A DNA stretch of 64,000 nt, from contig OY253675.1 in NCBI GenBank assembly GCA_958009085.1, positions 806,001-870,000 on the forward strand, in the 5' to 3' direction. This DNA is from Protoeuglena noctilucae. Lineage: Eukaryota. The notes beneath the pieces were generated by a model. It saw nothing but the letters and a program-made list of their open reading frames with translations, was not told where the DNA came from and searched no databases. This document shows positions 5,270-36,921 of this stretch, piece by piece; position 1 is the stretch's first letter, and every line of letters starts with the position of its first letter. The position numbers and the translations under genes were made by a program.

Positions 5270-5555
5270 CGTTCGCCCAGCCCCCCTGGGGCAACCACTG
5301 TGCTCAGCGGCGAACAGGGCTCATCAGCACAAATCCGGCTATCAGATTCACCACGCAGGCACAGCAACAGTGCTGGGAAACGGGCGCTCGCAGGGCGATT
5401 GTCGGTTGCACTCGGCGCTCTGGCGCCTGCCGTTCGTCAGGAAATGCTGCTCAACAATAACGGCAGCTCGCGACGCTGGGGAACGAAAGCGTAGGGGGTT
5501 GCTCGACCGACGCCGCGGACTCGCAGTGCGCCTGGTGTCGCATTTGGAGGCGAAG

Positions 5556-15082: not shown

Positions 15083-17527
15083 TCAGGAGTAGCGCTCGAA
15101 ATCTGACAGGGGCGCTCCCCTCTTGGATCCCCGGCGGTCCCGATCCCCGCGGCCCCTGCATTGGAAACATCACATGCCCATGTCTGCCACACATGTGCAT
15201 GTGGCCTGGCTAAGAGGTCGCCTCCCACCACAGCACCTCACCTCCCGCGCCCTGCGCCCCCTCCCCTGCCACGGCCTGCATAAGGTCCCGCCCCCGCTCC
15301 GCCCGCATCCCGGCCTTCGTACCTCCCCCGCGTTTGCTTGGCAGGGACGGGGTAGTCGACGCCCATCTGCACCTTGCACGCCGCCTGCTCCTCGGCCGAC
15401 AGCCTCCAGGGCTCGTGCACCATCGGGGCCGACACCGCGCTGATCTCGGGGATCCAGTGCCGCACGTAGTCCCCCTCCTTGTCGTAGTCGTTGGCCTGCT
15501 TGGTGATGTTGAAGCGGTTGATGCGCCCCCCCGTGAGGCCCGCCGCCGCCACCCAGTTGCCCCAATTGGACGCCACGTCATAGTCAAGCAGCAGACTCTC
15601 GAACCAGTCGGCTCCCTGCCGCCAGTCCAGGCCCAGGTCGTGCACCAGGTACGACGCCACGTTCTGGCGACCGCGGTTGGACATGAACCCCGTCGCAGCC
15701 AGCTCCCGCATGTTCGCGTCCACCAGCGGCATGCCCGTGCGGCCCTCCTTCCACCTGCGGGGCAACTGGCAGATGCAATCCACCACCAGTGCGGGGCTGC
15801 AGAGTGCGGGCGCGTGCATGCAGCTCCTCGCGACCCACCGCCGCAGCAGATCGGGGTTCGCCCGCCACGCAGGCGCGGCGCCCACCACGCCCCCCGAGTG
15901 GAATATCCTGTTGCCGTGCTTCAGAGCAAAGAAGCGGTAGTAATCGCGCCAAATGAGCTCGAAGATGACCCAGTAGGTCGACTTGTTGGCCACCACCTGC
16001 GGCATGCGGATCGAGTGCCCACAGTCTGGCACCGCTACCTGCGGTTTCAGACCCACACCTCGCTCGATGGCACTCCCAGCAACTCACTCTGCAACCCCAC
16101 CCCTCACCTGGTCCTCAAACTTCTTGATCTCGTGGTAGATAGTGCGTGGGGACAGGCACCCATGCGCGAGCCACGGCGCGAACTTGGTTGAGTAGTCCCC
16201 GCCCAGCATGCCGTTCCGTGTCTCAAAGTAGTCCGCCAGGAGACGCTTCTCGCCCCAGATGTAGTACCGGAGACGCTCTAGCGCCACCGACTCACCCCCC
16301 ACGAAGTTCAGCACCCCCTTGGGGTCCTGGGCCTGCCTGCGGGATGCCAACGAGCCGATGCGGTGTGCACGGTGGCATGACCACCTACAAATGACAGCAT
16401 TTGGCATATCTAGCATACATCTGGGCCTGGCCGCCAGCAGGACTCGCCTGGGGACCTTGGGTTGCATGGGGAGGTCGTCGTAGGTGGGTGTGAAGTCGAA
16501 GGAGAGCCCCGTGCCAGCCAGGCACTCCGCGCTGGGCAGCGGCAGGTCGCCCTTCCGCAGGGGCGGCAGCTCCGCCCGCACGCGAGACTGCGACTCGACC
16601 TTGTTCTTGAACGGCGTGAACACGTCGGGCATATCGGTGAGGCCCTGCCTGCGTCAGGACACATGACGCAGACGTCGAGAGATACTCGGTGCCAGTAGCG
16701 CAGTCGAGTCACTTCTGGCAATGGCATCGGCGACGCACCGGAATGGGAGGTCGGCGAGGTGGTACAGCGTGTGGCCCCACACCCGTCGCAGCTCCCCACG
16801 GCTCCCCACCGCCGTCTTCACCTCCGCGTCCACAGCACGTTCCTCAGACGTGACCTCGTCCTGCGTCAGGACCGTAAGGCGGTCCGCGGACGGGGCGACC
16901 TTCGCGATGACCTCCTCGGGCTTCCCAACCGCCACGAGCAGGTCTGCATGAGATGGGGGGCGTGTGACGCGGGAGATGGAAGCGGGCTGGGGGCTGGTGT
17001 GAACCGGCAGCACAGTGCAGCGCATGGGGTTAAGCTGTCCGAGGACAGCCGCATCTTACCGGAGCCCAGGGCTCGGAGGCTCTTCTTCAGGTCCAGCACT
17101 GACTCAAGCTGGAACTGGGCACGGAAGGGCCCCGTCTTCGGGTTGCCCCAGGGGGTGGTTCCAAAGAAACGCGGGTCGAAGCAGTAGAGAGGGAGCACCT
17201 CCGCTGCCCCGCCCCTGCACATGTCCGCCGCCTGCTTGAGCGTCTCATTGTCGCGGACCCGCAGGTCGTTCCTGAACCACACCACGACCCGGCCCTTGCC
17301 TCGGTCCCCGGCCATCGCAGACGTCACCACGAACCGGCCCCGACGGGACACGCGCTGCGCGCCCTCTGCCTGCGTGGATTGCGTTGCGCGGCAGCCAGTC
17401 TTTGCGTGGGGTCCCCGTCTGGCGCGCCGAGCTGCTTAAACGATGCGCAGAGAGGCGCGTCGGAAATTCGACTCACGAATTTGAATGCTAGTGCACTCCT
17501 CGCGCACGGAGCGGCCGCCTGTTGCAT
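15083..17527 (-). CDS. CRYD: Cryptochrome DASH with probable N-terminal transit peptide and RGG-rich tail (multi-exon)
   Basis: WFRNDLRVRDNE, YFETRNGMLGGDYSTKFAPWLAHGCLSPR, FELIWRDYY, GFMSNRGRQNVAS and DYDVASNWGNW. The start codon and last exon are inferred from splice sites. Confidence 0.92.
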
Positions 17528-25237: not shown

Positions 25238-25856
25238 ATGCCCAAGCTCAGCGACTACAAAGGCCGTGGGCCTGCTGGGTCACAGCCGGTGTCTAGCGAA
25301 GGGCAGGAAAGCGCAGGGGCGAAAGATGCGCAGGATGTGGCAGTGCATAATGCGATCTCTGCGCGGCGGGAGCTTATGAAGGCAGAGCAGCAAAGGTGAG
25401 GCTCGCGCTGCAGTCTTTGCGCCGACCGTGCAGAACCCGCTTTTAACCGCACTATGTTGCTCTTCATGGCCAGCAGCGGATATAATATTTCACAAAGATT
25501 GCGCCCATGCTCGCGCGTGCCCTGCGACCCGAGGCGCAAGTATATACAACATGACGACTCTTCGCGTCTCTCCAGGGCCGCCGCGCTCGGTCCGCCGCTC
25601 TTCAGGCATGAGGACGGCACGCTGCAAAAGACCAAGCCACCGCAACACCCTCGCACGGTCGCCGCGCGGCAGCGGTGGGCGCAGATGCGGGCCGACGCCC
25701 TGGCCGCTGTGCTATGTCAGGTGAGGGACGCGAGGGCTGCTGAGGGAGCGACAGCTGGCGTGATGGCCCGTGAGCTCCACCACCGACAACCCCGCGCAGG
25801 ACCCTAGTAGCACCTTGGCCGCCCTGGACATCGTCCACAGCAGCGTGGCCAGCTGA
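25238..25856 (+). CDS. Small hypothetical protein (3 exons)
   Basis: MPKLSDYKGRG...MKAEQQR, GT-AG intron, AAALGPPLFRHEDG...VLCQ, GT-AG intron, DPSSTLAALDIVHSSVAS*. Frames are consistent across the introns. Confidence 0.5.
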
Positions 25857-25940
25857 CCTTTACAGACTTCAACTGTGCAGCTACTGGCAAAGAGGCATGC
25901 AATGCCTAAGGCCTGGTCCCGTGTTGTCACCTCTGTTGTG

Positions 25941-27299
25941 CTACTGACTGTCGAGAGCGCCCCTCGCGGCCGCGTCCCCGCCGATGCTCCGCTGGAACAC
26001 CCGCTGGTACATTCCCACCCCGAACCCGCGGGCGTTGTTCTCCTCAGACCACGACTTGAGCTCCTTCACCAGGCCCTGATCCTGAGCCCTCTGCCAGCAG
26101 CGCATCGGGTCCATGCAGTAAGCCCCTGCGCGGAGAAACCACACCCGTCGGCTCAGCAGAAACGTTCAGAGCACTGCAGCTGCCATGCCCCAGTCGCCTC
26201 GCCTCGCACTCACCGTTGCAGTGGATGTCGTCCATCAGCAGGATGTGGAAGGTCGGGTTGGCCAGCGGCATGAAGTTCACAATGTCCTTGTACGGGACGT
26301 CGCCGCCGTGCCCGCCGTCAACGAGGATGATGTCGCAGCGGATCTCCTGCCCCGCGAGCGAGTGGACGAAGCCCGGGACCGTCGCGAGGCTGTCCCCGGC
26401 GACCAGCGCCTGGCGGCCGGGAAAGCGAGAGCCGAGGAAGCGCTGGGCGACCGGCGCGTAGTCGTGCATGAAGATGTCGAAGGACGTCACGATGTTGTCC
26501 GGGTCGGCCAGGAGCCAGAGGGCCGAAGAGTGCCCGGCGTTGAAGCCGAGCTCGCAGATGTGCTTGACGCACGGGTTCTTGGCCACAGCCTGGTACACCT
26601 TTCTGCGGGAGCCAAGGCGGCGTTAGGGTTGGAGAGGATCCAAAGCCCCCGGCGGTGTGCCAGCTGCCAAACTCTACGGTCGGTGGTTAAACGCACCTCT
26701 CAGCGATGAGCTGGCCGCTATGGCCCTCCGTGATGGCCACATTGTTTTCCTCCAGGTACGCGTTGAGGTCCTTGTGCAGGCGATCGAGCGCAGAGAGGTC
26801 CTCGTACTGTCATGCTCCGTCCAAAACGGACCTCAAGTGCGCCTCGCACGCAGCGACGCTCGGAACGCGGCCTGCGACGTCGGAATTCCAGTTTGCCCGT
26901 GTGCCGCATGAGGCGGGGCCCCAGACCCGGGCGCGGCGCTTCATCGAGGGCACCGGCAGACGTTCATCTTGCGGCCGTTGAGAGAGGGCGATGAAGCCCA
27001 CACGGCGGCGGGTCACCCGTGGCGGAAGACACACAGGCGTGCAGCCAAACTCATCTAAGCATCGCCGCGTCGAGATGCGGCCATCCCACAGCATCCATTC
27101 CGGCCAGTATAGGTGCAACGCGCCCACAAATTCAGCCTGCGCACTCACGGAACGCGACCGGGCGCCGGGACACGAGCACGAGGACGACGAGTGCCACCGC
27201 CCCAACCGCAGCGACGATCTTCCAGTGCTTCAGCAGCACGCTTTGGGAGCCACCATGTGGCTTTGACTTGCTATCCGTGGGGAGGGAAGACCACACCAT
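25941..27299 (-). CDS. Type II membrane class I SAM methyltransferase (Methyltransf_24-like, multi-exon)
   Basis: N-terminal anchor WKIVAAVGAVALVVLVLVSRR; catalytic motifs ICELGFNAGHSSALWL, SFDI, LVAGDS, CDIILVDGGH and LLMDD. Confidence 0.8.
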
Positions 27300-27591
27300 C
27301 TTTCTCTTCAGATACCGGCCGCAGCAGAGTTTGAACTGCGCAAGACTGATAGCTCCCCGGACTGCGAGCACGTGGCGATGTTTTGCTGGGTTAAGCGCGC
27401 ATCCCAGCGGAGTGGCCACCTTTTGCATGGCCGCAGTGCCCTGCACATTGCGCAGCGCTTGAACCTGAGGGCACTGGCACTTCGCCGCGAATTGGCGCCG
27501 ATCAGCGCCACAGATCGCGAATTTTTCTTCCTTGGGAGATGACGGCACCTCAAAGCTCACATATGCGCTGATCGGCAGAGTGCAATTGGCT

Positions 27592-29739
27592 ATGCTTGAG
27601 AGGATCCGCCTCCCTCTCGTCCTCGCCCTCCTGACCGCGGCCGCGCTGGGGCTCGGATGCGTGACCTGGTTCAGCACCCTGCACCGAGTTGCCCAGGAAG
27701 TGCACCATGCGCCACTCACGTTCGACAACGCTGTCGTCATCCACGCCGCCAAGCCCATGCGCAAGGGTGCATTGGACGTCACCACCCGAGCTCAGTGGGA
27801 GGTGTTTCGGACGAATTACCGGGAGAGACATAAGCGCGAGCCCCCTGCCATTCTCCGACGCCTGCTCGCAATGGAGAGAACCTGTCCCGACTTCCCTGCA
27901 AGCAGGCAAGGCCGGCCCACCTGCGTCGCTGCGTGCGGCGATGCGCTGTTGGATGACCGCCAGCTGTTTTTTTTCGACGATGGCTGTCGCGTTTCGATCC
28001 CAGGCTGTACGATCGGATCCAGTGGGACTTGGCCCCATGGCGGGATCTCCGCCGGCGCATGGGAATCGCCGCCCTTCAGGATGCGGCCCATGCCGTCATG
28101 CATTGGCCGGCTGATGAGCACGTCACGGTCATCACCGCACCAGGTCGCGAGGGGGCATCAATGGCGCACGTGTTCGGCCCACCAGGGACCTGGACCTGGG
28201 GCCTCTGGCCAGAGCTCCAGCGGATGCTCGAAGACGTGATGGATGTCTTGCCGCCGGGCATCACCTTCTCTTTCGAATACGGAGATGCCGCGAGAGGCTT
28301 CAACGCGCTGGGAGGAAGGCCAGAGAAGTACTTCCCGCCCATGCCGGACGGGTTCGTCAGGTGGGCGGCAAACACCAGCCCTGCCCTCTTATCTCGCCCA
28401 GGCACCCGCACCAGAGGGTTCCATGCCACATGCTGCACCTCTCGCTCGTTTCCACAGCTTCGCGAGCCCCCGCCCTGGCGACGTGGACCCCAAGTTCGAC
28501 ATGGAGCTGGACCCACCAGCCGAGGCGCTGCGGCAGTTCATGGCCCGCACGTGCCGGCTGAGCGACGACCAGCTGCGCAACCATGTGTTCCGACATTCGG
28601 CGATGCACGCGCACAGGGCGCACGAGGACGGTGTCAGGAGACCCGTGGCCATCTTCTCCCAGGTTGGTGCTGGGTGCAGATCTGCCAATTGACACGGAGC
28701 ACTGCCGCATGTGCGCGCGCCTTGAGCGAGAGATGTCACCTTTTGCAGAACAAGGTGGACGGCTGCATGGTGGACATGCTCTTCCCTACGCCGTACTGGG
28801 TGGACATTCAGCCCGTCGAGGGATCGAACCGGCCTTGGGAGGAAAGAACGGCGCAGCCCATCGTGTGGCGGGGCACCACGACGGGTGCCGCCATGGAGCT
28901 GGCCGAGCCGCACGGCTTCGATTGGCGCAAGGGACACCGCATCCGCCTGGTGACGGAGTTCAGCCAGTCGACGCTGGTGGACGCCAAGGTGGTGGAGGTG
29001 CTGCAGTGCGGGGACATCTGTAACGAGGTGGAAGAGTACATTCGCGAGGGCGGGGGCATGGGGGGGCGGATGCCTCCTGACTACGTGACGCGGTGAGGGC
29101 GATAGGGGCTGGGAGGGAGGCAGATGAGTGGCGGGTCGCCAGCTCCAGACCCGTGTGCGCCCGTGGGCTTCTCGCCGCAGGTACCGGCACTTGTTGGATG
29201 TGGATGGGAACGGTTGGTCATCGCGGCTGCCAATGCTGCTGTGGTCGCGTGCGTTGGTGCTGAGGGCGGCGGTGTTTTCGTCGTTTGTGGACGGGCTGCT
29301 GGAGCCGTGGGTGCACTACGGTGAGCAGCAGCGGAGGGAGCGAGTCATTGGATGCGTGATGTCGGGGGTCACGTCAGGGTAGGGCGACGAGGGTTAAGCT
29401 AAGCTTGCGGTGGGGTGTCTGCCCTCGCAGTGCCGGTGCGGCTGGACTTTAGCGACCTGGAGGAGAAGGCGCAGTGGGTGCTGGACAACCCAGCAAAAGT
29501 CAGGCGAGCGCTGCGGGCAGGCGGATGGGCGAGGGCCCCAGAGTGGGTGCGATGGGGCAGGACCTGTGGAGTGAGTTGAGCTGGTGGCCATGGCGATCGC
29601 TGCTGTGCGTCGCAGGGAGATGGTGGCGAACGTGGAGCGGGATTTCCCGTCCCCGGAGGAGATGTATGACGCCATGGTGTGCTACGCGTCGTACCTGCTG
29701 CTGGAGTACGCGTGCCTCTTCTTCGACATCTGCGAGTGA
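27592..29739 (+). CDS. Glycosyltransferase family 90 (CAP10/Cxt1/KDELC-like), type II membrane protein (multi-exon)
   Basis: Anchor LPLVLALLTAAALGLGCVTW; PVAIFSQ-NKVDGCMVDMLFP, PWEER..IVWRGTTTG, HRIRLV, YRHLLDVDGNGWSSRL and LEPWVHYVPVRLDFSDLEEK. Confidence 0.88.
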
Positions 29740-30081
29740 TGTGCAACGACAATCGACGCTTGATATCTCCTAACAACAGTAGACTACACTAGGCTCAACA
29801 ATGGGTTTCTTTGCTTGCGCCGGAAGCTGGCCATTCCTGCTTGATTTTTTGGCCCCTAATATCCGAATCTGCGATGTATGCCCACCTCCTCACCTTTTAT
29901 AGATACTCTAACACATCCCCTGCGGCACCCTACCCTGAACCGCGCGATAAATTTCCTCCCTGCCTTCTTTGAAGGCTTCACGCAGATTGGGTTTTCAAGA
30001 GCTCTTGATCTCCTCCAAACCGCGATTGTCGGTGACAGAAAATACGCACTGAACCCGCTGTCCTGAGGTGCGGTCTCTGCT

Positions 30082-31583
30082 ATGGGAGAATCGGACCTGC
30101 GCGGGGCAGGTCCGGTGTGGCGGGCGATTTCCCAGCGTGTGACCCAAGGGAGCCTCGTCTTGGCAGCCCTGATCTCTGTCGTGGTGGTGAGGACTTCCGA
30201 ATTCGAAGAACTGTCGATGGCGGCTCGCAATCGGCGTCATACGGACCTCTTCGGTGCGCGCAGTGTTCCTTGGCCTGGCTGATCGGATCCTTGTCCTGCG
30301 GACTGCACGCTGCGCCCAACAATCGCATGAAGTTTGTCAGCGTCGACCCGTACCTGCCTTTTCCAGGCCCTGTGGGTGCCCTCACCGTGGTAAGCTGATT
30401 TGTTTGGACTTCGGGTTGGCGCGCCGAGTTCATTCCGCCTGCGACTAGACGGTGCATGCGATTCCTTGGACGCAGTACAATGCGGGCCTGAGGCTTGTAC
30501 GCATCGGCAAGGACGGGGATGGGGGCTACCCCATCGCCGACCTGGGCCGCGATGCCTACGACGTGTACGTGGCAGGAGGCGTCAACGACGACACCAGTTT
30601 CGACCGCGCCTTCCTCGGCATGCACGACATCCGCCATGGTTATGCGTTCGATGGCACGATCGAGCAGGCCCCGCCGCTCCCTCCCAACCTCATGTGGATT
30701 AAGCAGAACATCGGCTTCGGTGAGCGCAGGGGACGCAGCGTACAAGTGGGTGTGACCCAAGCAGTGTGGATGAGCCCGGCAGTGTGCATAGCGAGAATAC
30801 CTTGCATGCCATGGAGGCCCGGTGGTGTCACCTTTGCAGGGCCCACTACGAACGACCTGACCGAGTACCTGAGGAAAGGAAAGGACGTCTTCTTAAAGAT
30901 GGACATTGAGGGGGCGGAGTGGGACTGGTGAGCGCGACAGTAAACGGTGCGTGGCGCATCCTCGAGCATGGCGAGACGGGCAGCGTCTCACGACACACCC
31001 CGGACTGGCTTCCAGGTTGCATAAGATTGACGTGTCCGACCTGCGCCGCATCAAGCAGATCGTCATGGAGATCCACGACCCAGGTGTGGTTCATGTGGGC
31101 CTTAACGTGGCCAGTAGCCGCTGCCAGCGCAGGACTCGCGCCGACCCATGCCTCCCATGCCTCGCAGGAAACGAGTCGTATGGTCTGACTTCGGATGTGA
31201 AGCTCCAAATTCTCGCCAAGCTGGCTTCCGAGTTCGTCCTCGTCCACGCGCACGGCAATAACAACTCGCCGTTCCACAACGTCAAGGGCGTGGCCGTGCC
31301 GCAGGCGCTCGAACTAACCTATGTCCGCAGTGGCATCGGCAACGCAGGTGCGTACTTATTCTGAACGCCTGACTTTGTCGCATGGCTGAGTGTCGACCTT
31401 TTGGTGAAGTCGCGCCTCACGCGCACCCCATCCGCAGTAGTCGGTCAGGTGCCGAGGCGGCAGAGTCCGCTGCCGGACGCTTCGCTGGACCAACGCAACT
31501 CCTACCTCTTCCCCGAGCTGCTCATCACGCACCCGCCTTTTGTGATGGTCCCCGGGGAGGCAGCCCTGCATGCCGTCATGTAG
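30082..31583 (+). CDS. FkbM/Methyltransf_22 (METTL24-like) SAM methyltransferase with N-terminal TM anchor (multi-exon)
   Basis: TM GSLVLAALISVVVVR; RIGKDGDGGY, GVNDDTSFD, YAFDGT, VFLKMDIEGAEWD, KQIVMEIH, LVHAHGNNN and LELTYVR. Confidence 0.82.
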
Positions 31584-31898
31584 ACCAACCAAGCTGACAG
31601 GAGCACTGCGATGTGTGTGTGCCGCGATGCGTCTTTCTCACCCTGTTGTCCTACTTGCTGTTTCTGGCCACTCACGGCTGCTGCAGTCGCCACGCCAGTG
31701 GCCAAGGTTTGGCAGACGGGCGAGCCTAACTCCCCTACCTCTCAGACCCAATAGTTTCATGAACTGACGTCAGCACCCAGGGACTACCTGATTCAACCAA
31801 CATCCAACGGCGCTCCCGTCGACAGCCAGGTCGGGGCTGACACTGCACTGACTAGCAAAACCTGAACTACGCGTCCCGGTGGCCTTGCGATCAGGCCT

Positions 31899-33867
31899 TC
31901 AAGAGCTGCGGATGGCGTCGCAGTAGCCCCGCGTAAGCGCCCACACCGTCGCCTCAAAGTCCCCCGCGCCCCACTTGGGCCCACCCGTGCCCAGCCAGTC
32001 CTTCGACTGGAAGTACCCTCTCAGATGGCCCAGGCCGATCCCCTCAGGGAATCGGTGGTCCCGCTCCCCCAGCTGCGGCGGCACCCCCGCGCACGTCCAC
32101 TCGTGGCGGTTGGCGTGCATGAAGAGCAGCTGCCCATCCGGCGCCGTCTGCGCCATGGCGTTGCCCTCGAACCCCGCGCCCTCAAAGTTGGTCCCCACAG
32201 CTCGCACGCCGTGCAAGATCATGGCGTAGTCCCCGCCCGCGGCGGTGATGCCCCAGGCGAACGACTCCTTGTCCCCGATGCCGGCGCTGTTGGAGAGGAG
32301 GTACTCGAACGTGCGATTAGGGTACGCCATGAAGAAGAGGGCCAGCCATAGCCCAGGCAGGTGCCGGGTGCGGTCGATGACGAGCTGCGGGCAACATGGC
32401 AGTGGCGAGATTGGAGATCGTGGCGAGCGTGCACTGCCGGATGACTTGCCACACATCACGTCCAACACCAGCGGTGTCAGCCTCACCTGCCCTGACTCGT
32501 GTGTCTTGCGCGGTGGGGCGAAGTTGGCAGCCGCAAGGACCGTCTCGTAGTCCAGCTTCCCCACAGAATCCTCCTGGGGCCTCGCCGGGACAGCCATGCG
32601 AGGATTGGCCTCGGGCGCGGCGTCGCCGAACGCAGGCGTTGCCCCGGCCCACGGCTCCCATCCCCGTGCTGCCGCGAGGTCCCGCGCCTCCGTCAAAACC
32701 TCCACCAGCTGCGGGTCCGCCGTCAGCCCCCAGAAATCGGGCCAGAGCACGGCCCCGTACCGCCGGTACAGCGGATCGTCGAACAGGAAGGCGGGGTCGC
32801 GGAGCGGGATGTTGTCCGCGTCGAGCAGCAGCACCTCGCGGAAAGAGCTCATGGCCACGGCGAGGACCTTCATGGTGAAGAAGGACACGTCTCGGTGCAG
32901 CTTGTCGGAGAGTACCGCCGCCCCGCCCCCGTCGGTGCCCCGGACCAGTGGCAGCAGTTCGTCCACCACCACCACGCGCGCCCCCAGGTTCCGCTGGAGG
33001 AACGCCTCGATGCTCGCACTGGGGCGCTCGAAGGCGAACGTCCACAGCTCGGCGGGCAGCGTGGACCTGGTCTGGCGCAGGAACCACAGCGCAACCATCG
33101 ACTGGGCCAGCACCCGCCCACCGCCCACCACCACGACCCCGCGGCCCTCCCCGGGCGCCCCTGCCCACATGCCGTCCACCGGCACCTCTCCCATGAGCCG
33201 CATGAACTCCCCGACCTGGGCCGCCAGGACCGCCCTCTGCTCTCCGGGGTACCGCTCCCCGTGACGCACGTAGTCAGACCCGCGCTCGACCCGGCTCCCG
33301 ATCGGCGCCGCCACCCAGGCCCTGGCGCTCGCGCGGCCCGGGGTGGCTGCCGACCGGTAGAAGGCGCGCGCGATGTTGAGGTTGAGTTGGCCCCACACAC
33401 GCATGGCAGCATCCCTCCAGACTAGTTGGTCCTCCGGGGTTTGCGGCGCAGGCAGCAGGGGCGGTTGTGAGCGGCTTCCAGCCATTGTGTCATCGGAAGG
33501 CAAAGCTTGCGAATACGGCTGCTCACTTGTGCCAGCGAAGGTGCTGCAGATGTGCGGAACGACGCCCCCGAGACGATGGACCTGGACGGCTCTCGTGTGA
33601 AGGACATGGACTTCACGTGCAAGCCCTGCGTCGCCCATACTCTCGCTCTTGCCCTGCGCGAATAGGCGACATGCGATGGGCGGAAGGGCACCGAGAGCGA
33701 GCTGCGATCCTTCAGCCAGCCGCTTTCGTGGCCCGGATGGATGCGGAAAACGAGCCAACTCACCGCCACACCCGCCCGATGGACGCCCATCCCCACATCA
33801 GCGACAGGACGAGGACGGCGAGGAACCCGGCCTTCGCCCACCTCCTCCACCGCGTCCAACGCGCCAT
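31899..33867 (-). CDS. Glycosyltransferase family 71 (MNN2-like alpha-mannosyltransferase), type II membrane protein (multi-exon)
   Basis: Anchor RRWAKAGFLAVLVLSLMWGW; RGVVVVGGG, STLPAELW, KVLAVAMSSFREVLLLDADNIPLRDP, GAVLWPDFW, ESGQLVID, GDKESF and FMHAN. Confidence 0.9.
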
Positions 33868-34138
33868 GATGGAGGCCTCGAGACCATCTAGCGGGCCCAG
33901 GGTCCCAGCGCGTGCAACCGTAGCAAACTTAGTAAGCCCTTAATCCACCGCGGTCCGCTCGAACGGCAATTATGAGGGGGGGCGCCAGCTTCGGGCATAC
34001 AAAACTTTGTGTTTTCTGCACAGATGCTCTCTCGTTTTATCTTCGACGCTGCTGCTTTGCCAACGCGAGCACAATCACCACCGAGTGCCATCTCTCGCGA
34101 ATGTGCGGGGATGTAAAAGCCCACGGAAGATCCTGACA

Positions 34139-36921
34139 TCAGCTCCAGCACTCGACTTGCAAGCGACCCTGGACCTCCATCGCCCTCAAAAACGACGCGG
34201 CGACACCGTCATCCAGCCCACCGTGAATTCGCACTGCGGGGATGGCAGGCCTGTGGTCAAGCCGGGCCAAACCCTGCACCGGGAACGGGCCTCCAGCCGC
34301 AGCGTCCTCACCCACGGCCTGGAGAGCTGCCCTCACATCCGCGGGCATCTCATTCGCGCTGCCACATATATACACGGCGGCGCCCGCCTGCAGGAGGTCC
34401 CACACGCGGCGGCCATGCTCCTGAATCTTATGCTGCACGTACACCTTGGTCGCCTGCTCCCTGGACAGCGCGTAGATCACGGAATCCTCGCTGCGGGTTG
34501 CAAAGAGCGAACGCAGCTCACTTCAGGCCGCGCGACGCACGCTGACGCCGGCACAGTCGCAGGGCACGCACCCCAGCAGCCCGGTCCTCATCAACGCCTC
34601 CCACTCGTCTGCGTACAGCTTGTCCTTGTCGCCCCGACACCCCGCAAAGAGCAAGACGGTCCCCGCTCCCCGCTCGGCCCTGTGCGCCTCCCGCTCCCAG
34701 AGCATGGACCGCAGAGGGGCAATGCCCGTCCCAGGGCCCACCAGCACCATGGGCGTGTCCGCCAGCCCGGCCCTGCGACGACGGGGCGGGTCCGCGTTTG
34801 CTCGAGCCCCGCTAGCCGCGAGGGTCCTGCCCCTGGGCATGTCATGTCACGGCCCATGTCACCTGTCCTCAGGCAGGCGCAGGCTCCCTGGCTGCATCCA
34901 CAAGGGGACGAGGGCGCCTGGTTTCAGACCCCCCAGCCAGTGAGTGCAGAGCCCTTTGCGCAGCCGCTTCCATGGCGTGCGGTACTCGACGACCGCCGCC
35001 GTGACGTGGACACGGCCAGGGTGGGCCGAGGGAGACGACGACACCGAGAACTGACGGGGCTGCATCCTGCGAGACGCGCGCGTTTGGTGCAAATCGCCAG
35101 GTTACAGAGCCCTGAGCCCTGTCCGAGCGCCAAGCAGCATCTGCCGCACCCTGCGCGCCCGACGCTCACCGGGGTACCACCTGCAGCACCCACTCCAACG
35201 GGAGCCTGGCACTCGGGAAGTCCACCAGAACCTCCAGCACGGAGCGCCTCTCGCGAATGCAGTACTCGTGCAGGTCGTCGAGGCCATCCACGGAAGCCAG
35301 CTCACGGAGACGCTCGGCCTCAGCTGCTGCGGGGATCAGCTGAGCGCACCGCTTGGCCGTGACTACGAGTGAGCAGCATCTAATGTCGGTGCCCGCATCA
35401 CTTGCCGCAGCAACTCGCCTTCGGGTGCAAAGTGGGACAGCACTTCAAAGAAGTACCGCCTCGGGCTCACGGAGAGCATATCCACCGCGCCCCGCAGCAA
35501 CGCCTCGACCGTGGCCTCCATCGACGCGGTAGGCGCGTCCTCGCCCGCCGCGTCATGGCTCTCGGCGCTCAGCGACAAGCGAACCCGGTCCTCCAGGCGG
35601 ACTCCCAGCCTGTGCAGCGTAGCAAGGCCTGGCAAAACTGAGAAGACGGCCATGCAGCGCCATCAAGGCGCGACGCCTCGACGGGCGAGTGTCACCTGCT
35701 CGCGCAGAACTGCAGGGCGTCGTCAGGGACCTGCGGAAAGACGCACGCGACGTCCCCAGGGCGGTAGTCCATTCTGCCGGGCTCCGCGCTCGACACGTCC
35801 AGCTCGATGTGCCGAACGTCCTGCCAGTGATCCGGCGCGGTCACACGCTGCGACCACAGTGAGGAGCCCAGCATGATGGTGCTGGTGCTGCGGTGGGCAG
35901 CGGGGTGGTCTGCAGCTGCCGGGGGGAGCACTCACTTGGTTGACGCGGACAGGCGCGAGGAATGGCCGCCCGATGTGATACCCAGGCGCATGAACACTGC
36001 TCGAGGACGCCCCGAAGGCGGCCCTCTCCAGGCGGTCAAACTCCCATGCAACCCTGCACCACTCGGCCAGCCTCTCGGACTCCGTGGCCTGTCAAGCGCA
36101 GGTACGAGATGCAGAGATAAGCATCAGCATACATCTCGCTTACACGGCCAGCCCCTCAAATCAAGATGGCTGTGACACACGCGCCCCCCACCCGCGGTGT
36201 GGGGTCGGTGCCCACCACCTCCACCCTGTAGCGGGGGGGGTCCAGGCCTCCAGCTGGCAGTGCTACGGGCGTCTGCACGTGGGCGAGCGCGGCCCACAGC
36301 CCGTCCAACCACGGCCCCAGCGATCCCTCGTATCCCCGCGGGTGCTGGTCATCGCCAAGCCCCAGCGAGCTGCAGCGCAAACGCAAAGTCAGTTTCCGCG
36401 ACAGAGCTCCATGCGTTGGCGCGGCGCATACCACGCCTACCTTTCCGTGGATGCCACCCACCACAGCTGCTGGGCACCCAGCTGGAGCAGCCTCCGGTGG
36501 AGCTTCTTGGCAGCCACGTTGAAGCGTGCGTAGCCCGAGTCGCCGAGCCCGAACACCGCGAATTGGAGGCCTGCCAGAGCGTCGTGCGGGAGGCCTCGAC
36601 GCAGCAAGACGCGCCAAAACGGCACCATGTTGCGGGGTGGGTCGCCCTGGCCCGTCGTGCTGGTCACAAACACCGCCAAAGGCTCCGTGGGTAGCTTGGC
36701 CAGCTCGTATGCATCCATGGAGACGAGGCGGGCTGCGCCAAAGGAAAAATCTCGGCGAATTGGTTCTGCGGCACTGCAAAAGCTGTCTGCGCTGCGCTTC
36801 GACAAGCCTGTCGCGGCCGCGTACCGCTGTAGCCCCTCCTCCTCGCCGCCCGCCATACGCCCTCCGCGACATCTCGCGCGTTGCCGGTCTCCGATCCGAA
36901 CAGGACCAGCAGGTCGAGCAT
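34139..36921 (-). CDS. NDOR1: NADPH-dependent diflavin oxidoreductase 1 (Tah18/ATR3, multi-exon)
   Basis: LFGSETGNARDVAE, STTGQGDPPRNM, FAVFGLGDSGYARFN, GLGDDQHPRG, PRQFSVSSS, VGPGTGIAP, YVQHKI and C-terminal RLQVECWS. Confidence 0.92.

Follow-up and report, generated by a model that had tools for sequence, protein, structure and literature searches.

A block of four adjacent glycosyltransferase and methyltransferase genes in Protoeuglena noctilucae: a candidate module for an O-methylated glycan

Here we describe a block of four consecutive genes in the genome of Protoeuglena noctilucae, located in a 64-kb window (the whole stretch of DNA analysed, positions 806,001 to 870,000 of contig OY253675.1 in assembly GCA_958009085.1; all coordinates below count from its first base). 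The block extends from position 25941 to 33867, a span of 7.9 kb, and brings together four unrelated families: Methyltransf_24 (gene 1), the glycosyltransferase family GT90 (gene 2), a distant FkbM-like methyltransferase (gene 3) and the glycosyltransferase family GT71 (gene 4). The explanation that we favour, at somewhat less than even odds (a probability of roughly 0.45), is that the four genes form a small co-functional module whose products may build and O-methylate one glycan of the secretory pathway, either secreted or displayed at the cell surface. We favour it because the four families stand side by side, each model with an N-terminal hydrophobic stretch, between flanks that hold no glyco-enzyme gene; because all four genes are found in spliced RNA, genes 1 and 2 lie head to head and a run of this kind is rarely expected by chance; and because relatives of gene 3 are fused to glycosyltransferases, both methyltransferase types recur together in one fusion protein (P0109) and in one giant-virus gene cluster (L038), and chromosome 19 of Ostreococcus offers a precedent.

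If the four products do act together, a single anchor at each N-terminus would fix them in the Golgi membrane and leave their catalytic domains on the luminal side. Of the two glycosyltransferases, the GT71 member, a GT-A type enzyme with a DAD motif, would transfer a hexose, which family precedent suggests to be alpha-mannose, and a second sugar would come from the GT90 member, in whose family glucose and xylose are the known donors. Two methyltransferases dependent on S-adenosylmethionine (SAM) would cap free hydroxyls with methyl groups.

Gene order, families and transcripts

The window has a guanine plus cytosine (GC) content of about 65%, together with very high third-position GC (GC3) in its reading frames and many short introns, and these last two features indicate that it comes from a eukaryotic nuclear genome. 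The same stretch is present in marine metagenomes, in metatranscriptomes and in runs of one cultured organism. Spliced models of the four genes were built by combining RNA splice junctions with relatives from protein searches and tblastn, the RNA evidence being contigs from four marine metatranscriptome runs (X7, X10, X11 and X12; three samples from one study) over the region 25500-34300. Spliced contigs cover all four genes and contain 15 splice junctions; with three further introns of gene 3, placed by homology and GT-AG sites, the genes hold 18 spliceosomal introns in total (Table 1). Introner-type repeats were considered and rejected, as the 18 introns have no similarity to one another or to the rest of the window. 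The initial annotation, made from the DNA letters of the window, had proposed four consecutive genes with exactly the ends that we recover, position 25941 being the final base of the gene 1 stop codon and 33867 the A of the gene 4 ATG on the minus strand. It had also called the block operon-like, a term that we have dropped given that the genes are separate, spliced, eukaryotic and distributed over both strands. The product that it suggested, an O-methylated xylo-mannan or N-glycan, is likewise unsupported.

Gene 1 has three introns, each seen in three or four of the four RNA runs, and scores 30.8 bits against the Pfam family PF13578 (Methyltransf_24; cut-off 26.3). All 14 columns that are invariant in a 12-sequence alignment of the family (SAM-binding and acidic residues) are kept in its exon. 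The spliced frame of gene 2 is open and ends in TGA. One exon of this gene reaches 21 bits on PF05686 (Glyco_transf_90), under the cut-off of 24, a score that stands for the single exon and not for the full spliced protein; the nearest full-length relative (P0001), which is 56% identical to the gene 2 model, scores 55.2 bits. The C-terminal 100 residues of P0001 match the solved structures of POGLUT2 (E 6.4e-13) and POGLUT1 (E 1.6e-4), and the nearest solved GT90 relatives are thus protein O-glucosyltransferases and not a mannose-directed xylosyltransferase. The spliced frame of gene 4 is likewise open and ends in TGA, and it has the strongest family match of the block, 113 bits against PF11051 (Mannosyl_trans3; cut-off 22). 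Its DAD motif (D313, A314 and D315) is invariant in alignment A3, and the Atlas clusters nearest to it are all Mannosyl_trans3 and named alpha-mannosyltransferase; a search for a close solved structure found none. The RNA pieces listed for gene 4 (from X7, X10, X11 and X12) start at 31944, with the final 45 bases of the frame (31899-31943) lying outside them.

Gene 3 belongs to a large family, with 585 representatives at E <= 0.001 in the protein search, and its placement is more distant. Its own exon scores 14.1 bits against PF05050 (Methyltransf_21), below the cut-off of 22.7; among its ten nearest relatives five reach this cut-off, two fall below it and three are without a match, and many longer relatives pass. 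The NCBIfam matches to FkbM are sub-threshold only. The predicted structure of one relative (P0080; mean predicted local distance difference test score, pLDDT, of 75) has 72 PDB matches at E <= 0.001, and on this model the gene 3 family has a class I SAM-methyltransferase fold. The Pfam scans support the family names first given to the block for Methyltransf_24 and GT71, through the nearest relative for GT90 and, at a distance, for FkbM, but not for Methyltransf_22 (PF13383), which had no match in the scans of the exons or of 52 gene 3 relatives. As four different families the genes are not paralogues of one another, in line with the initial annotation, and no paralogue of any of the four models was found elsewhere in the window. 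Of the relatives from the protein searches, P0005 and P0241 are 66-76% identical to gene 1, P0079 is 42% identical to gene 3 and P0249 is 58% identical to gene 4.

Membrane anchors were judged by hydropathy on the spliced models, using a Kyte-Doolittle mean of at least 1.6 over 19 residues. Each of the four models has, as had been proposed, one strongly hydrophobic stretch, at the N-terminus only and with basic residues before it (residues 20-50 in gene 1, 5-30 in gene 2 and 13-33 in gene 4), which is the pattern of a predicted type-II signal anchor.

Genes 1 and 2 are indeed divergently arranged at the distance of about 290 bp originally reported. RNA contigs in the region between them end at 27399 (a position derived from the 252 unlisted letters of record 15 of X7) and at 27543, leaving 143 bp between the ends, and we infer a putative bidirectional promoter shared by the two genes. 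Gene 4 lies tail to tail with gene 3. The neighbouring genes are unrelated to the block, as also claimed at the outset: the 41 flanking reading frames that were scanned include matches to kinases, TAP42, Hus1, SIP1, photolyase/cryptochrome, a FAD_binding_1 reductase, kinesin and APC2, and none to a further glyco-enzyme family. On its 5' side, gene 4 (exon plus untranslated region, 33763-34171, with an RNA contig reaching 34171) overlaps the 3' end of the next upstream gene, which is FAD_binding_1 reductase-like and lies on the same strand (34142-35931, minus); this shows how tightly genes are packed here. Further away, a cryptochrome-DASH-like photolyase gene lies at 15241-16653 (minus), its best solved matches being bacterial DNA photolyases and plant CRY-DASH; Atlas and PDB searches with this frame yielded no usable taxon.

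Table 1. Positions of the four genes and their parts in the 64-kb window
Feature	Position	Strand	Details
Gene 1, Methyltransf_24 (class I SAM O-methyltransferase-like), predicted type-II anchor	25941..27299	-	299 codons
Gene 1 exons	27299-27148, 26870-26697, 26602-26213, 26124-25941	-	ATG 27299; stop TAG 25941-25943
In-frame TGA, gene 1 codon 71	26810..26812	-	between anchor and catalytic domain
Intergenic region, genes 1/2	27300..27591	divergent	292 bp between ATGs, head to head
Gene 2, GT90, predicted type-II anchor	27592..29739	+	518 codons, 7 exons
Gene 2 introns	27903-28000, 28358-28454, 28660-28745, 29092-29179, 29320-29429, 29501-29612	+	each junction in 3-4 of 4 RNA runs
Gene 3, distant FkbM-like SAM methyltransferase	~30082..31583	+	about 304 codons
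Gene 3 introns, RNA-supported	30719-30838, 31081-31164, 31343-31432	+	junctions in 1, 3 and 3 of 4 runs
Gene 3 introns, inferred	30187-30332, 30390-30448, 30928-31015	+	homology and GT-AG sites
Gene 4, GT71 alpha-mannosyltransferase-like, predicted type-II anchor	31899..33867	-	556 codons; stop 31899-31901
Gene 4 introns	32385-32486, 33441-33526, 33653-33762	-	junctions in 4, 1 and 2 of 4 runs

Fused relatives and viral gene neighbourhoods of the methyltransferases

The domain fusions and viral gene neighbourhoods of their relatives make a glycan the most reasonable reading of the putative substrate of both methyltransferases. Fifty-two gene 3 relatives were scanned, 40 of which had been picked for a length of at least 330 residues and hence form a biased sample. 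Glycosyltransferase domains above the Pfam cut-off occur in 18 of the 52 (15 of the 40 long proteins and 3 of the 12 others), with one more weak match, and they belong to families GT32, GT8, GT34, GT10, GT2 and GT4; a further kind of fused domain, F5/8 type C (discoidin-type), is found in two of the 52. One of these proteins, P0109 (936 residues, from a cluster of seven on contigs of up to 96 kb), combines GT8, Methyltransf_24 and GT32 with a gene-3-like domain in a single polypeptide. Its Methyltransf_24 domain, placed between GT8 and GT32, shares 35% identity with gene 1 (E 7e-17), and its gene-3-like domain shares 33% with the gene 3 model, so that by sequence comparison P0109 unites in fused form the two methyltransferase types that stand in the same block of our window.

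Relatives of gene 3 are also very common in the viral contig collection, with 224 confirmed stretches, from which 80 loci were kept (IMG/VR contigs L002-L081, many labelled GVMAG). One of these giant-virus loci, L038, carries between positions 5375 and 14342 the series GT2, GT47, GT11, HtrL_YibB, FkbM-like, GT4, an unknown gene, Methyltransf_24 and HtrL_YibB, with both methyltransferase types thus among five glycosyltransferase-family genes. Searching the same collection with P0109 gave no close relative, and scanning it with the GT90 alignment gave no relative.

Joint action, chance adjacency and other explanations

A number of observations weigh against joint action of four intact, anchored enzymes, and they concern the coding capacity of gene 1, the anchors of genes 3 and 4, the reach of the RNA evidence and the association of the four families in other genomes. 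The frame of gene 1 from anchor to catalytic domain is interrupted by a TGA, in the DNA as in the RNA contigs; those of X7, X10 and X11 span the exon 26697-26870 with no differing letter. The closest relative of gene 1 (P0005) has tryptophan at this position, and P0004, a nearly identical protein in a different data source, begins just past it, as expected of a gene caller confronted with the same stop. Since both gene 2 and gene 4 terminate in TGA, the codon serves as a stop in this organism, and a variant genetic code in which TGA would be read as tryptophan is thereby ruled out. For a selenocysteine reading, no Rfam match in the window reached the gathering score, and the surroundings of the gene 1 3' end gave nothing resembling a selenocysteine insertion sequence (SECIS) at E <= 10. 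The 229 codons 3' of the TGA are intact and keep every invariant residue. A C after UGA makes a leaky stop context, in which near-cognate decoding would restore the tryptophan. Either the gene 1 methyltransferase is made only by (low-level) read-through, or the enzyme is not made in this population because the gene was recently inactivated and is now a fixed pseudogene that is still transcribed, and one of the two proposed methylation steps is consequently in doubt for this population.

With respect to the anchors, the exon that would encode that of gene 3 (30082-30186) is without RNA support, and an X7 contig runs unspliced through 29613-30303, a stretch that leads from the final gene 2 exon over both the exon and the intron proposed to come first in gene 3. 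In gene 4, the anchor and the catalytic part share one frame only through the 86-base intron 33441-33526; its junction is seen in one of the four runs, and an X7 contig reads through it. Intron retention or an alternative 5' structure is possible at both 33441-33526 and 30187-30332. The RNA contigs show the presence of spliced RNA and not its level, and co-expression cannot be read from them; a parallel rise and fall of contig depths across the runs was set aside as a sign of co-expression, as it follows the abundance of the organism.

The association of the four families across genomes is weak. A metagenome scan with the GT90 alignment returned one locus, the 2,420-base mRNA contig that encodes P0001, and does not show conservation of the adjacency. 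Within 10 kb of the gene 3 relative in the viral loci, a gene-1-like gene is found in 2 of 80, GT90 in 1 of 80 and GT71 in 0 of 80, and the 54 loci of the viral collection centred on GT71 relatives contain the other three families in no case (0/54).

These figures also speak for the most serious rival explanation, in which the four genes encode independent Golgi enzymes that act on different glycans or acceptors and have become neighbours by chance in a gene-dense genome. We consider this unlikely on balance, while taking it seriously. Coding regions are dense over the whole window (roughly 24 in 64 kb, about one per 2.7 kb), and short intergenic distances are ordinary in it, so the tight spacing inside the block is not special. 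GT71 enzymes extend mannans, and the solved relatives of GT90 glycosylate protein domains, being protein O-glucosyltransferases, so that the two glycosyltransferases need not share an acceptor. Chance adjacency is opposed by a parametric simulation of random placement, in which 2e-5 to 0.12 runs of four are expected per genome when 100-500 such genes are placed in genomes of 8,000-16,000 genes, both ranges being assumed values; the first stage of the work read a large number of windows, however, which makes a chance run somewhere less unlikely than the per-genome figure. It is further opposed by the small size of the GT71 and GT90 families in two sequenced cryptomonads (1 and 1 copies, and 5 and 2 copies, according to the available text of PMC6260743) and by the two methyltransferase families being joined in P0109 and standing together in one viral glyco-cluster. 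Measured by a criterion of at least three adjacent non-homologous genes, the block contains four glycan-enzyme families in 7.9 kb, which would serve a single pathway.

The co-functional module, which remains our preferred explanation, can also be put in a stronger form, in which it is conserved and co-regulated in the Golgi, both anchored methyltransferase families are the long-sought eukaryotic glycan O-methyltransferases, which cap a sugar chain made by the GT71 and GT90 enzymes, and the fixed TGA of gene 1 acts as a switch whose read-through sets how far surface glycans are methylated, possibly in an arms race with giant viruses that carry the same enzyme families. We regard this stronger form as distinctly unlikely.

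A different origin for the block would be horizontal acquisition of all or part of it, with a giant virus or a bacterium as donor, with introns gained later and possibly with a role in varying surface glycans against viruses, such as has been proposed for the outlier chromosomes of prasinophytes. The abundance of gene 3 relatives in viral contigs, many of them GVMAG-labelled, agrees with this, as does the resemblance of viral genes to gene 1 (37% identity) and to GT90 (47% over 82 residues). Several glycosyltransferases of Ostreococcus chromosome 19 are of putative foreign origin and are tied to virus resistance (available text of PMC5082852), and resistance in Gephyrocapsa cells goes along with raised glycosyltransferases and sugar methyltransferases (available text of PMC12489294). 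On the other hand, the block shows no compositional break: its GC is 0.61-0.68 as compared with 0.63-0.68 in neighbouring bins (about 0.65 around it), and its GC3 of 0.80-0.85 is similar to that of the flanks. The four genes carry 18 spliceosomal introns, their protein-search relatives are closer to the models (42-66% identity) than are the viral ones (29-41%), and no viral locus examined has more than two of the four families. Taken together, these points make acquisition improbable.

That the methyltransferases instead act on a lipid, small-molecule or protein substrate, whether within the secretory pathway or, should the anchor models be wrong, in the cytosol, and merely neighbour unrelated glycosyltransferases, would suit the breadth of the Methyltransf_24 and FkbM-like families, the generic source names of gene 1 relatives (for example "predicted O-methyltransferase YrrM"), the generic class I O-methyltransferases that are the solved relatives of the gene 1 family (weak E-values, 0.0075 and worse), the generic SAM methyltransferases that head the P0080 fold matches (low TM-scores of 0.23-0.31 on the query) and an anchor exon of gene 3 that no RNA contig bears out, but is made very unlikely by the fusion of gene 3 relatives to glycosyltransferase and F5/8 type C domains, the gene-1-like domain between GT8 and GT32 in P0109, the presence of both types within the L038 glycosyltransferase cluster and the hydrophobic stretch with which all five of the inspected protein-search relatives of gene 1 start (P0005, P0006, P0008, P0009 and P0013).

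Known systems and significance

O-methylated sugars are common on the N- and O-glycans of microalgae, and as of a 2020 review no glycan methyltransferase responsible for them had been characterised in these organisms (available text of PMC7773692). A search of the later literature, with subscription journals mostly outside its scope, found no title or abstract that reports a microalgal glycan methyltransferase, and a search of the same scope found no paper, in the text available to it, that unites GT90, GT71 and these methyltransferases at one locus. With their predicted anchors, glycosyltransferase neighbours and fused relatives, the two methyltransferase families of this locus are offered as candidates for unassigned glycan O-methylation. 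If the four genes act together, they would provide a small example of pathway clustering in eukaryotic glycosylation and a link between the glycan-tailoring enzymes of hosts and of giant viruses; if they do not, the locus would be no more than a row of four unremarkable genes for Golgi enzymes.

Gene 4 resembles the GT71 Golgi alpha-mannosyltransferases of the yeast Mnn2/Mnn5 type in its strong PF11051 match, its DAD motif, its predicted type-II anchor and its neighbours named alpha-mannosyltransferase, but its source is a marine protist or alga and not a fungus, and a corresponding activity here is a prediction. Gene 2 can be compared with the GT90 protein O-glucosyltransferases POGLUT1, POGLUT2 and Rumi through the P0001 match, a likeness confined to the C-terminal part; it differs from them in its predicted type-II anchor.

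In giant viruses, genes for glycosyltransferases and sugar O-methyltransferases are clustered or fused, and their products work one after the other on a single glycan, as illustrated by A064R of chlorovirus PBCV-1, which combines two rhamnosyltransferase domains with a methyltransferase domain, and also by A061L (available text of PMC9614988). Relatives of genes 1 and 3 do occur in such viral clusters and fusions. In contrast to these, the genes described here are cellular, intron-bearing and separately transcribed, with predicted membrane anchors, and only 2 of the 80 viral loci have both methyltransferase types.

The closest precedent is found in the Mamiellales, where glycosyltransferase and methyltransferase genes are clustered on a small outlier chromosome (chromosome 19 of Ostreococcus tauri). 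In the available text of PMC5082852 and PMC5371798, these clusters include an FkbM-type enzyme, suggested by the authors to methylate glycans, and are linked to virus resistance. The likeness lies in the setting, marine picoeukaryotes, and in the placing of glycosyltransferase beside methyltransferase genes in both. Unlike the Mamiellales clusters, the block in P. noctilucae consists of four genes only, is intron-rich and is without outlier base composition, and it brings GT90 and GT71 together with Methyltransf_24, three families that are not named for those clusters in the available text of the same two papers (PMC5082852, PMC5371798). The clustering of glycosyltransferase with methyltransferase genes is thus already known in kind, and the combination of GT90, GT71 and two methyltransferases reported here is a further example of it.

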